From contig OZ024744.1 of the NCBI GenBank assembly GCA_964016885.1, forward strand, positions 39,184,001 through 39,248,000: a stretch of 64,000 nt of DNA, written 5' to 3'. Each line of letters begins with the position of its first letter. The first letter of the stretch is position 1. The notes under the pieces are model-generated. The model was not told where the DNA came from and searched no databases. It worked only from the letters and a program-made list of their open reading frames with translations. The stretch is from Eledone cirrhosa (Eukaryota). Below, piece after piece: positions 1-50,715 of the stretch. Position numbers and translations under genes: made by a program.

Positions 1-1836
1 TATGTATATATATATATGTATATATATATATGTATATATATATGTATATATATGTATATATATATATGTATATATATGTATATGTATATATATATGTATA
101 TATATATGTATATATATGTATATGTATATATATATGTATATATATATATATGTATAATATATATATATATATGTATATGTATATATATATGTATATATAT
201 ATATATATATGTATATGTATATATATATGTATATATATATATATATATGTATATGTATATATATATGTATATATATATATATGTATATATATATGTATAT
301 GTATATATATATATATATATCGTATATGTATATATATATGTATATATATATATATGTATATGTATATATATATGTATATGTATATATATATGTATATATA
401 TATGTATATTGTATATATATGTATATATATATATATGTATATGTATATATAAATGTATATGTATATATATATGTATATATGTATATGTATATATATGTAT
501 ATATATATGTATATATATATATATGTATATGTATATATATATGTATATATATATGTATATATATATATATATGTATGTATATATGTATATGTATATATGT
601 ATATGTATATATATATATGTGTATATATATATGTATATATGTATATGTATATATATATGTATATATGTATATGTATATATATATGTATGTATATATGTAT
701 ATGTATATATATATATGTGTATATATATATGTGTATATATATGTATATATATATGTATATATATATATATATGTGTATATATATATGTATATATATATGT
801 ATATATATATATATGTATATATATATATATATATATATGTATATATATATGTATATATATATGTATATATATATGTATATGTATATATGTATATATATAT
901 GTATATATATATGTATATATGTATATATATATGTATATATATATGTATATATATATGTATATATATATGTATATATATATATATATGTATATATGTATAT
1001 GTATATGTATATGTATATATATATGTATATGTATATATGTATATATATGTATATGTATATATATATGTATATATATATATATGTATATATATATATGTAT
1101 ATATATATATGTATATATATGTATATGTATATATATATGTATATATATATGTATATATATGTATATGTATATATATATGTATATATATATGTATATATAT
1201 GTATATGTATATATATATGTATATATATATATATGTATATATATATATATATATGTATATGTATATATATATGTATATATATATATATGTATATGTATAT
1301 ATATATGTATATGTATATATATATGTATATATATATGTATATGTATATATATGTATATATATATATATGTATATGTATATATATGTATATATATATATAT
1401 GTATATGTATATATATATGTATATGTATATATATATGTATATATATATGTATATGTATATATATGTATATATATATGTATATATATATATGTATATGTAT
1501 ATATATATGTATATATATATGTATATGTATATATATATGTATGTATATATGTATATGTATATGTATATATATATGTATATATGTATATGTATATATATAT
1601 GTATGTATATATGTATATGTATATATATATATGTGTATATATATATGTGTATATATATATGTATATATATATGTATATATATATATATATGTGTATATAT
1701 ATATGTATATATATATGTATATATATATATATATGTATATATGTATATGTATATATATATATGTATATATATATGTGTATATATATATGTATATATATAT
1801 GTATATATATATATATATGTATATATGTATATGTAT
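1..1836. repeat. Degenerate (TA)n/(TATG)n microsatellite
   Basis: Almost pure alternating T/A with interspersed G on the + strand. The overlapping long ORFs are low-complexity artefacts. Confidence 0.98.
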
Positions 1837-2711
1837 ATAAATTGAAACAAAATGAAAACGAAATTTCATTTCTCACTCTTAGTATGGCACTTACTTAAAT
1901 GTAAGTATGCATGTATACGTACATACATATATGTATACAGACGTATAGTAGCATGCACATATATATATATATATACATATATACATACATATGCATACAG
2001 GTACACATACATATATGCACGTATCAGTTTAGCGGCGCTAACGTCGCTTTGTTCGTTTGTAAACAAACTGAACAGCCTGAATTTATGCCATACGGTGTTA
2101 AGGCAACCACGTCACCTTTTTGTTCAACACTGACACAGGAACGATGTACTAGTTTCAAGCTTGTTAGCTATCATCAGCACCGTTTACCCATCTGCCAGAT
2201 AGTTGAACGTTCGAAAGTATATACTTTCCTTATGAAAATTAACGGCTGAGCAGCCTAATTTGCATATTGAGTGAGTTAAATCGGTCAGGCATACCGAAAA
2301 CGATAAATTGAAACCAAATGAAAACGAAATTTCATTTCTCACTCTTAGTATGGCACTTACTTAAATGTAAGTATGCATGTATACGTACATACATATATGT
2401 ATACAGACGTATAGTAGCATGCACATATATATATATATATACATATATACATACATATGCATACAGGTACACATACATATATGCACGTATCAGTTTAGCG
2501 GCGCTAACGTCGCTTTGTTCGTAATAAATTCAGGCTGTTCAGTTTGTTTACAAACGAACAAAGCGACGTTAGCGCCGCTAAACTGATACGTGCATATATG
2601 TATGTGTACCTGTATGCATATGTATGTATATATGTATATATATATATATATGTGCATGCTACTATACGTCTGTATACATATATGTATGTACGTATACATG
2701 CATACTTACAT
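1835..2711 (-). mobile_element. 466-bp hammerhead-containing repeat (retrozyme-like), array 1: ~1.5 units plus an inverted arm
   Basis: Period 466 (identical ORF starts at 1852 and 2318). 2524-2711 is the reverse complement of part of the unit. Flanked by microsatellite on both sides. Confidence 0.85.
2140..2184 (-). ncRNA. Minimal type I hammerhead ribozyme
   Basis: Minus strand: AACGGUG-CUGAUGA-U-AGCU-AACA-AGCU-U-GAAAC-UA-GUA^CAUCGUU. 7-bp stem I, intact core, 4-bp stem II, palindromic ACUAGU stem III. Confidence 0.85.
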
Positions 2712-3683
2712 ATATGTATATATATATATGTATATATATATGTGTATATATATATGTATATATATATGTATATATATATATATATGTATATATGTATATG
2801 TATATGTATATGTATATATATATGTATATATGTATATATATATGTATATATATATGTATATATGTATATATATATTTATATATGTATATATATATGTATG
2901 TATATATGTATATATATATGATATATATATGTATATATATATGTATATATATATGTATATATATGTACATATATATGTATATATGTATATATATATATAT
3001 ATGTATATATGTCTATATATATATGTATATATGTAAATATATATGTGTATATATATGTGTATATATATGTGTATGTATATATATGTGTATATATATGTGT
3101 ATGTAAATATATATGTGTATATATATGTCTTTATATATGTGTATGTATATATATGTGTATATATATGTGTATGTATATATATGTGTATATATATATATGC
3201 ATGTATATATATATATATATATATGTATATACATATATATATATATGTATATATATATATATATGTATATGTATATATATATATATATGTATATATATAT
3301 ATGTATATATATGTATATATATATATATATGTATATATATGTATATATATATATATGTATATGTATATATATACACATATATATATACATATATATACAT
3401 ATATATATTTTCATATATATATATACACATATATATATATACACATATATATATTTTCATATATATATATACACATATATATATTTTCATATATATATAT
3501 ACACATATATATATATTCATATATATATAGATATATATATATACACATATATATATATACACATCTATATATATACACATATATACTCACACATATATAT
3601 ACTCACACATATATATACACATATATATACACATATATATTTACATATATACATATATATATATATAGACATATATACATATG
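2712..3683. repeat. (TA)n-derived microsatellite, switching from TATG-type to CATA-type near 3370
   Basis: Direct reading of the sequence. Confidence 0.95.
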
Positions 3684-4122
3684 TGAGTTACAAACGAAAC
3701 AAAATTTAATTTCGTTTCGTTATTTGTTTTTATCGTCTCCGTTGAACCGGTACGTACTCACACTATGCAAATTAGTCTGCCCACTACTAATTTTCATAGA
3801 AAAAGCATATAACGATATGTGCTTTTACGATTCTCCAGAAGGGCCGGTAGATAGGTAAATATTGCTGATGAGTTGTAACAACAACGAAACTAGTTCAATA
3901 TTCCTTGTCTGGCTTTCTGGAGAATAGAGGAAAGGTGTTTCCTCAAAAACCAGTATGACTCTAAAAACCGGTTTGTCTGTGTGTTTACATACAGAATAGC
4001 TGGATACTCACAGTAAAGTAACCAGTGAAAGACTTGGTACATCTACATATGTATACGTGTGTGTATTCATATGCATACTAGTATTTCAGTATACATATAT
4101 GGATGTACATTTTTAACTTAAT
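3684..4122 (+). mobile_element. Diverged relative of the 466-bp hammerhead repeat (single unit)
   Basis: Shares ordered blocks with the reverse complement of the 466-bp unit (ACTCAC..TATGCAAATTAG.CTGC, TAATTTTCATA..AAAG.ATATA, GG.AGAT.GGTAAA), followed by an HHR. Confidence 0.75.
3858..3902 (+). ncRNA. Minimal type I hammerhead ribozyme
   Basis: AAUAUUG-CUGAUGA-GUUGU-AACA-ACAAC-GAAAC-UA-GUU^CAAUAUU. Perfect 7-bp stem I, 5-bp stem II with G10.1-C11.1, palindromic stem III. Confidence 0.92.
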
Positions 4123-4384
4123 TGTATATATGTATATATATATATGTATATATATATATGTGTATATATATGTATATGTATATATATGTATGTATGTATA
4201 TATATATGTGTGTGTATATATATATATGTGTATGTATATATATATATATATGTGTGTATATATGTATATATATATATATAAATGTATATATATATATATA
4301 TATGTGTGTGTATATATATATATATGTGTGTATATATATATATATGTGTATATATATATATGTGTGTATATATATATATATGTG

Positions 4385-49787: not shown

Positions 49788-50041
49788 TGGAGGCACATGG
49801 CTTAGTGGTTAGACACTTTATTTCACATTGCTCCAGTTTACTCAGCTGTAGAAATGAGATGATAGGGGCTGGGGTGGAAAGTGGACGTGTAGGTGCCACG
49901 GAAAAAAAGCACCCAGCACTCACTGTAAATGAGGTTGGTGTTAGGAAGGGCATCCAGCTGTAGAAATCAAGCCAGAATCAGTTCCCGTCCCACCCTTGCA
50001 AGCAGGTAAAAAGCGGACGTAAAATGAAATGATGATGATGA
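49788..50041 (+). mobile_element. SINE of the 44665-45002 family, with B-box region deleted
   Basis: GGTTAGA is joined directly to (AGA)CACTTTATTTC, an AGA microhomology deletion. Confidence 0.82.
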
Positions 50042-50052
50042 TATATATATAT

Positions 50053-50218
50053 ATAAAATAAACATATGAAACAATCACAGGGAATAATTTGTAAAGTCTG
50101 TAAGCACACACAGCTAGGTAGGTAACTAATAAAAGTTTAACTAGAACCTCAAATATGGTTTTAAGATGATTAATTAAGATGATTAATTCCCTGTGATTGT
50201 TTCATATGTTTATTTTAT
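50053..50218. repeat. Short element bounded by a perfect 33-bp inverted repeat
   Basis: ATAAAATAAACATATGAAACAATCACAGGGAAT at 50053-50085; reverse complement at 50186-50218. Confidence 0.8.
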
Positions 50219-50304
50219 ATATATAAATATATATATATATATATGTCAATCAATTTCTAGTTGATATATATATATATATATATATATATATATATATATA
50301 TATT

Positions 50305-50715
50305 TTGTTATACTTTGGGAGGGTCATGCTGCCAATAAAAACACACGCACCTGTTGGTTTTCACTTCAATTTATTATAATTTTCTGGTTGGTTGGTTGGT
50401 TGGTTCGATAACCGGATGGTTGTTTATATATTGTCAAAGCTCTACACATGTGTAGGACAGAACAAAGGAGAGACACAAATTAAAAACCCAGTTACTGAGG
50501 ATGTCACAGAATGTGTGACAAAAGAGCTTTGACAATATATCAATAACCATCCAGTTATCAAACCAACCAACCAACTGGAAATTTAAATAAATTGAAGTGA
50601 AAACCAACAGGTGCATGTGTTTTTATTGGCAGTATGACCCTCCCAAAGTATAACAATATCTGTTTCAACACACGTTTTCAGTTAAGAATCTTGCAAAACA
50701 AATTAAAAAACGAAA
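50305..50715 (+). mobile_element. Non-coding derivative of the PLE3 family: inverted pLTR arm + direct pLTR + tail
   Basis: 50305-50440 is the reverse complement of the pLTR 3' part. 50450-50715 aligns to 49049-49346. Degenerate HHR at 50491-50533 with G12 changed to A. Confidence 0.85.

Follow-up and report, generated by a model that had tools for sequence, protein, structure and literature searches.

How does a single insertion come to have two unequal, fixed ends, and can one reaction account for coding and non-coding repeats alike? The question is raised by a stretch of the Eledone cirrhosa genome (GenBank assembly GCA_964016885.1, contig OZ024744.1, forward-strand positions 39,184,001 to 39,248,000; these 64,000 nt are referred to throughout as the window), in which a sequence-only reading had described hammerhead-bearing insertions made of two oppositely oriented arms, with one arm stopping at a fixed point and the other running further. 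Some of these insertions belong to Penelope-like elements (PLEs), whose inverted ends with a one-sided tail have been of open origin for two decades, and others to a 466-bp non-coding repeat of the retrozyme type, a class whose mover in animals has so far been argued only from co-occurrence with PLEs and similarity to their pseudo-long terminal repeats (pLTRs). We find that the two-ended feature is real and general, in that three coding PLE families (PLE1, PLE3, and PLE4) and three retrozyme families (with units of 466, 468, and 310 bp) each have two sharp end points, 35–100 nt apart.

The window has a GC content of 36% and is dense in (TA)n tracts and fragments of RTE-like long interspersed nuclear elements (LINEs); the genome measures 3.0 Gb. 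The near end point of each family is termed S and the far end point L, and orientation was taken from the hammerhead or the open reading frame (ORF). In all six insertions noted earlier, one arm ended at S and the other at L, with the RNA-sense 3′ ends facing out into (TA)n, and the earlier coordinates were reproduced to 0–4 nt; a match of 1–4 nt to the TA target blurs the exact end points of the arms. These arms, one hammerhead, and a single-armed copy of a related family are as follows.

1841..2523, minus strand: 466-bp retrozyme, array 1, long arm, ending at GTTTCAAT, which is site L (S+58), in (TA)n.
2141..2183, minus strand: type I hammerhead motif of the 466-bp unit, with a palindromic stem III, U-U replacing G-C at the base of stem II, and a predicted cleavage; it gives the RNA sense and was judged against the hammerhead core consensus.
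2525..2711, plus strand: 466-bp retrozyme, array 1, short arm, ending at CTTACAT, which is site S.
3683..4124, plus strand: single arm of the related 468-bp retrozyme family, with the S end and a hammerhead (Rfam HH9 match at 3847-3918, E 3e-6, under the gathering score).
6250..8288, minus strand: PLE1 arm (Hydra-type motifs), ending at S (about 6250-6254), with a hammerhead at 6302-6345 and a broken coding sequence for the reverse transcriptase (RT) thumb and GIY-YIG endonuclease.
8289..9687, plus strand: PLE1 arm ending at L, with a hammerhead at 9497-9543 and a 91-nt tail at about 9597-9687.
16127..17863, minus strand: 466-bp retrozyme, array 2, long arm of 3.7 units, ending at S.
17864..17913, plus strand: 466-bp retrozyme, array 2, tail-only arm of 50 nt, ending at L; the inversion has a 2-nt overlap.
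46951..46976, minus strand: PLE3 arm of 26 nt, ending at S.
46975..49347, plus strand: PLE3 arm ending at L, with a 5′-truncated RT and GIY-YIG ORF to 48896, a pLTR, and a 62-nt tail at 49286-49347.
49364..49448, minus strand: PLE4 arm ending at S; the inversion cuts the hammerhead short.
49452..49509, plus strand: PLE4 tail-only arm (+43 to +100), ending at L.
50305..50450, minus strand: arm of a second PLE3 copy (divergent subfamily), ending at S.
50452..50716, plus strand: pLTR and tail (62 nt) of the second PLE3 copy, ending at L.

The distance from S to L, which is the tail, was 58 nt in the 466-bp family, 62 nt in PLE3, 91 nt in PLE1, and ~100 nt in PLE4. The long and short 466 arms had been said to be swapped between the arrays, and indeed the minus arm ends at L in array 1 and at S in array 2. 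The PLE3 arms inverted from 46951 and 50305 were recovered, with the ~60-nt tails claimed for their direct partners measuring 62 nt (to 49347 and 50716), and the PLE1 ends placed earlier at 6253 and, after a tail, at 9690 fall at about 6250-6254 and 9687. The insertion that had been singled out as a micro-element does have its S arm (49364-49448) and its L arm (49452-49509), but it is a doubly truncated copy of the coding family PLE4.

The same architecture holds genome-wide. A tabulation of junctions had been expected to give two sharp end-point peaks per family, and two peaks were found in each of the six families sampled. The sample comprised the first 100 matches listed per family, all on contig C1, which were grouped into clusters and whose ends were read by BLAST and by eye; among the first-listed PLE matches, 90/90 continue into S, L, or read-through of L. 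The 283 clusters included 168 with S+L, one with S+S (locus L241), one ambiguous (L085), none with L+L, and 113 that were single-armed, broken, or unresolved, a distribution for which p is about 1e-47 under an independent 1:1 choice of S or L at each end, with both exceptions counted against the rule. By family, S+L was found in 30/70 clusters of the 466-bp repeat, 47/61 of PLE1, 42 of the 72 PLE3 clusters examined (out of 73), 18/26 of the 468-bp repeat, 12/17 of the 310-bp repeat (plus one from outside the list), and 18/36 of PLE4, for which 12 clusters were picked because they were close pairs, and the sequence around 17 single matches was followed no further than 1.5 kb. Exact junction patterns of the 310-bp family numbered 1,189 for S and 1,218 for L genome-wide, and its outward-facing neighbors within 20 kb in the first 222 Mb of C1 were S+L in 62/62 cases (a set that overlaps the 13 S+L of the cluster sample), with 38 S and 29 L matches unpaired.

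Several candidate exceptions were set aside on inspection. An apparent L+L in PLE1 (L170/171) consists of two separate single arms 2.2 kb apart, two "LL" rows (L228 and L252) are internal tandem read-throughs, and the S+S of L241, which was still counted, is read as a later duplication, its inverted flank being identical over >330 bp. Mutually inverted flanks were also seen around the two-armed insertions at L043/L046, over about 40 bp.

Clade labels for the coding families are motif-based, by comparison with published descriptions rather than by placement on a tree. The ORFs of PLE1, PLE3, and PLE4 encode an RT followed by a C-terminal GIY-YIG endonuclease, the latter recognized from its motifs by eye; Pfam RVT_1 matched PLE3 weakly (E 0.0055) and gave no match in three other fragments. 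All three families have the layout of endonuclease-positive (EN+) PLEs, namely a pLTR with a hammerhead (in PLE3 a hammerhead-like motif read by eye near 49100-49140, in the pLTR of the 46975..49347 arm), partial tandems, an inverted 5′ copy, and a one-sided tail. PLE1 and PLE4 carry the motif set of the Hydra clade (DKT, a CxCX5C linker, no CCHH, CxxC and CxH near the end, and (TA)n targets), with DKT itself seen in PLE1 only, the PLE4 copy being frameshifted there; PLE3, with its CX2-5CxxC linker and CCHH endonuclease, is of the Neptune/Nematis type, a label under which those two clades are kept together.

The 466-, 468-, and 310-bp repeats have the features of non-LTR retrozymes: a non-coding tandem unit, a type I hammerhead in each unit, and a GC content under 50%. 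The 466-bp unit, with its palindromic stem III, falls into two subfamilies, one young and one older (about 425 bp). The 468-bp repeat is related to it (~67% identity), forms arrays of up to about 24 units, has a 70-nt tail, and obeys the S+L rule, and stem I covaries between the two hammerheads. The 310-bp repeat is unrelated to 466 and very young, with units 99–100% alike and a 35-nt tail (L104 3625-4818; L314-L335); one copy lies within the TA tract inside a 466 insertion, and distant relatives (66–69%) were found in L034, L344, and L407. The 466 and 310 hammerheads are without the G10.1-C11.1 pair, and in an Rfam scan of the window, where nearly all matches were TA-repeat noise, the 468-family hammerhead alone scored. 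Exact motif counts genome-wide were 18,308 for 466, 5,145 for 468, 16,902 for 310, 10,875 for PLE1, 29,606 for PLE3, and 2,565 for PLE4.

Where on the RNA do the two ends lie? The sequence-only reading had envisaged two priming events, one internal and one terminal. Two primings per two-armed insertion are retained here, but terminal priming is unsupported, because the unit sequence continues beyond L within the 466 arrays, in tandem copies of PLE1 and PLE3 the sequence likewise crosses L in the direction of the ORF start, and in 466 the hammerhead is predicted to cut at unit position 218, about 160 nt downstream of L. Both sites are thus internal, as reported in vitro for another PLE (Frangieh et al. 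2024, PMC11167929). When the 466 and 468 units are aligned, at about 67% identity, their S sites coincide and so do their L sites, with L just 3′ of a conserved hairpin, which suggests that it is the RNA that fixes the sites. Around S and L the families compared had no evident fold in common, and the 5′ ends of 466 arms, viewed by eye, showed no evident pile-up at the predicted hammerhead cut.

Most of the 28 flank pairs inspected lie inside TA repeats, where duplications are unreadable; at AT-rich non-TA targets, four two-armed copies are bordered by exact duplications (15, 12, 13, and 12 bp) and a single-armed 466 copy (L068) by one of 9 bp, and a sixth candidate gave none, these lengths including 1–3 nt common to the element end. 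The duplications fit staggered nicks with 3′ overhangs. The single-armed copy (L068 4962-7708) sits inside a PLE1-related ORF and was later partly carried into the inverted arm of that element.

We consider it probable that these insertions arise by double target-primed reverse transcription (TPRT), in which a PLE enzyme nicks each strand of an AT-rich target and one RNA is copied from both nicks, starting from S at one and from L at the other. This is favored by the S+L pairing, the variants shared between arms, the 35 of 85 PLE pairs in which the S arm is the longer, the target duplications, and the published in vitro data on a PLE (PMC11167929). Staggered nicks in the AT-rich target would leave 3′ overhangs, and one ribonucleoprotein with two active sites, or with one site used twice, would be bound at the S-L region. 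The L-primed copy would pass S by strand displacement and might occasionally stall there, which would yield tail-only arms; among PLE1 L arms, 5/47 have their stop in the interval −22 to +12 and the interval +13 to +91 holds none, which is no more than suggestive of such stalling. The two cDNA ends would then be joined via short homology or untemplated bases and filled in. A circular or multimeric retrozyme template would give multi-unit arms, and short pLTR-only transcripts would give small two-armed PLE copies. The units of 466 arrays are nearly uniform and have array-specific variants in common, as would be expected from rolling round one circle; a uniform multimer is compatible too.

Explanations of the two arms that do without a second priming event were also weighed. 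Papers on EN+ PLEs have invoked a single priming followed by fold-back or self-priming, in which the endonuclease trims an inverted intermediate and the tail is kept at one end (PMC3846280, PMC8557442). Palindromes at the inversion have been reported in rotifer PLEs, and in our set of 85 PLE pairs the arms end within 20 nt of each other in 27, some of them at palindromes. A copied-back arm must, however, nest in the first, and the 5′ reach of the S arm exceeded that of the L arm by >20 nt in 35 pairs, with the L arm reaching further in 23; fold-back of an L-primed cDNA cannot yield a longer S arm, and a single-unit S-primed cDNA holds no tail to copy. The symmetric junctions, for their part, coincide with shared limits: 29/80 PLE1 arms stop at a common 5′ limit of −154 to −162, with joining bases that differ among copies, and 9/28 PLE4 arms stop at −694/−695. 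We read these limits as the putative 5′ ends of short pLTR transcripts, and an internal pLTR promoter has been described for D. virilis Penelope (PMC2377424). Since the PLE1 arms share a limit and have different junction bases, both cDNAs would extend as far as the end of a single short RNA species, and the symmetric pairs would be largely explained by that limit. Two primings are thus indicated rather than fold-back, which we regard as improbable overall and as largely refuted already for single-unit arms. That the two-armed unit is itself mobile, as a DNA element resembling miniature inverted-repeat transposable elements, with unequal inverted ends and amplified from a few founders, is highly improbable: it would yield S+L automatically, and many PLE1 copies are indeed alike (about 300 bp, arms to −158) and two 310-bp copies have the same junction, but arm lengths and junctions are otherwise nearly all distinct, including the joining bases at −158, and the arms span 7 nt to >4 kb and include RT and GIY-YIG ORFs. 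It is scarcely credible that the inversions stem from misassembly or chimeric reads at microsatellites. The window junctions were read from the assembly, and the flank of L241 is perfectly duplicated over >330 bp; the unequal fixed ends, the target duplications, and the divergence of arms from each other nevertheless argue for real insertions, as do nested later insertions and the four minus-to-plus arm joints recovered, each in one contig, from an independent short-read run.

A more serious competitor keeps both primings and assigns them to two RNA molecules, copied by an asymmetric enzyme pair of which one subunit always starts from S and the other from L. Dual priming has already been proposed for L1 (PMC2837659), and the overlapping arms (83/85 PLE pairs, in a sample biased to overlapping pairs) would then require no strand displacement. 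Two loci, L100 (218-3815) and L089 (2738-4146), also join 466 and PLE1 sequence with the S of one family at one end and the L of the other at the far end; these chimeras may reflect a template switch or a deletion between neighboring insertions, of which the deletion explains them equally well, and they were rejected as proof of the 466 partner. Mixed arms are rare. The two arms of one insertion agreed at 607/620 variable sites in 466 (where the arms overlapped in 34/36 insertions), 245/258 in PLE1, 445/495 in PLE3, and 216/220 in PLE4 (90–98%), whereas shuffled partners agreed at 57–66%, below the observed value in every one of 2,000 shuffles; a nearest-neighbor test of the arms gave 2 closer, 14 ties, and 20 not, and the variable-site test was used instead. 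Private variants common to both arms, for example in all 13 units of L117, likewise count against two molecules, and a built-in asymmetry would be required to exclude S+S and L+L. We therefore give the two-RNA version a minor though real chance.

Several points weigh against double TPRT from a single template. The agreement between arms could stem from sibling transcripts of a then-active source locus, or from gene conversion between the arms at a later time. Inversion junctions were tried in 36 cases: 4 yielded nothing and 19 scored as insertions, many via mismatches to the reference or limits of the method; among the 13 cleanly read, 8 overlap by at least 2 nt, compared with 18% expected by chance, so that junction overlap is modest. 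Start sites of Poseidon, the PLE studied in vitro, did not differ between strands, pairing being outside that study (PMC11167929). The pairing sample consists of the first C1 matches, partly classed by eye, and seven of its S+L calls depend on arms of 7–19 nt. Double priming is not obligatory for every insertion, since 113/283 clusters are single-armed, broken, or unresolved and the single-armed 466 copy of L068 has its own 9-bp duplication. Lastly, no coding partner was found for 466, 468, or 310, whose sequences matched neither the PLE1, PLE3, or PLE4 ends nor any other pLTR or sequence in about 410 loci. The earlier claim that the signature ties the 466-bp family to Penelope enzymes is supported insofar as the signature is common to 466 and the coding PLEs; no similarity of 466 to the ends of the three coding families was found, and the proposed link to a Penelope enzyme comes from the shared footprint only.

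The elements belong to known kinds, and published work already covers the tail at one side, the pair of RT start sites, and a link between retrozymes and PLEs. EN+ PLEs are described as having an inverted 5′-truncated copy, a tail that is often one-ended, and (TA)n targets (Craig et al. 2021, PMC8557442; Gladyshev and Arkhipova lab 2013, PMC3846280), all of which, with the pLTR hammerheads, recur here; the duplications reported there measure 8–10 bp. The tails of the coding families here are longer (62–100 nt, compared with the 30–40 nt reported), and the pairing, termed "optional" there, is here counted and near absolute. The endonuclease resolution or self-priming that these papers invoke are both disfavored by the arm lengths. 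A closer parallel is Poseidon of Anolis carolinensis, in which two internal RT start sites bound the tail and both strands of the target were cut and extended in vitro (Frangieh et al. 2024, PMC11167929); the AT-rich targets are also alike, and the Poseidon enzyme is a predicted dimer. That study is silent on site pairing per insertion, on one versus two RNAs, and on non-coding templates, and the families here have Hydra-type and Neptune/Nematis-type motifs, not those of Poseidon. A circular template for PLEs has been suggested (PMC4209133). In L1 twin or dual priming, as described in PMC2837659, both target nicks likewise prime cDNA and inverted fragments lie inside a target duplication; there priming begins at the poly(A) end, the second site is internal and variable, and an internal deletion is left. 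In the present insertions each of the two sites is fixed and lies internally, the arms overlap, and such an event is the common outcome, which sets these insertions apart from twin priming of the L1 type.

For the non-LTR retrozymes of animals, mobilization by PLEs has been proposed (Cervera and de la Pena 2020, PMC7229834; Li, Clavereau and Pollet 2026, bioRxiv 10.64898/2026.07.22.740005). They are described as non-coding tandem units of 150–450 bp, or as much as 972 bp in Li 2026, each bearing a type I hammerhead, with low GC and PLEs alongside, as in E. cirrhosa. In the available portions of these sources the case is made from co-occurrence and pLTR homology, without junction analysis; here the footprint is shared and pLTR homology was not detected. 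The retrozymes described here are known from sequence, their self-cleavage and circular RNA being predicted. A term search of the main text of the 2026 Octopus vulgaris repeat annotation (PMC13282606) did not return "ribozyme," and we found no published pairing count, same-template test, or retrozyme junction evidence, with older subscription papers and supplements lying outside the search.

Other observations concern the surroundings of these families. Within the window, a further PLE RT fragment (21852-22835, 24291-24323) is 42% identical to PLE1 and has a hammerhead-like motif ~1.5 kb downstream, and an extra hammerhead motif of PLE1-like layout lies at 49673-49703, upstream of a TA tract. 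Many RTE-like LINE fragments, of two subfamilies ~75% alike, occupy 4037-46928, some as inverted pairs beside TA tracts (for example 33754-35949 versus 43175-40985, at 97% identity). Elsewhere, the long 466 array of L116 (3298-9901) has unit variants that recur every 8 units as a higher-order repeat, and RT-coding sequence of another PLE family, 29% identical to PLE3, adjoins a 466 L end in L104 (5150-6501). Two 466 L arms (L064 near 2683 and L105 near 2921) join at their 5′ ends a common sequence of ~110 nt that runs into (TA)n and is possibly the arm of another family.

On balance, we lean slightly toward a broader view, in which double TPRT is the default of PLEs, one complex starting cDNA on one RNA at S and at L on opposite strands, in which unrelated hammerhead circles have kept an S and an L of their own so that the same reaction can roll them out from both sides, and in which the S+L footprint would mark PLE-mobilized RNAs of any genome without homology. 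A near-absolute S+L rule in six families, together with the inference of one template, makes PLE integration and the partnership with retrozymes directly testable, and the pairing with shared variants sharpens the questions to be put: which start site is used on each target strand, whether one or two RNAs are copied, and whether a PLE protein primes on retrozyme RNA at the two positions predicted. With tens of thousands of such ends in the genome, the rule can also be used for annotating them. If the S+L footprint does record one RNA copied from both broken strands, it would mean that the enzymes of PLEs also move protein-free repeats.

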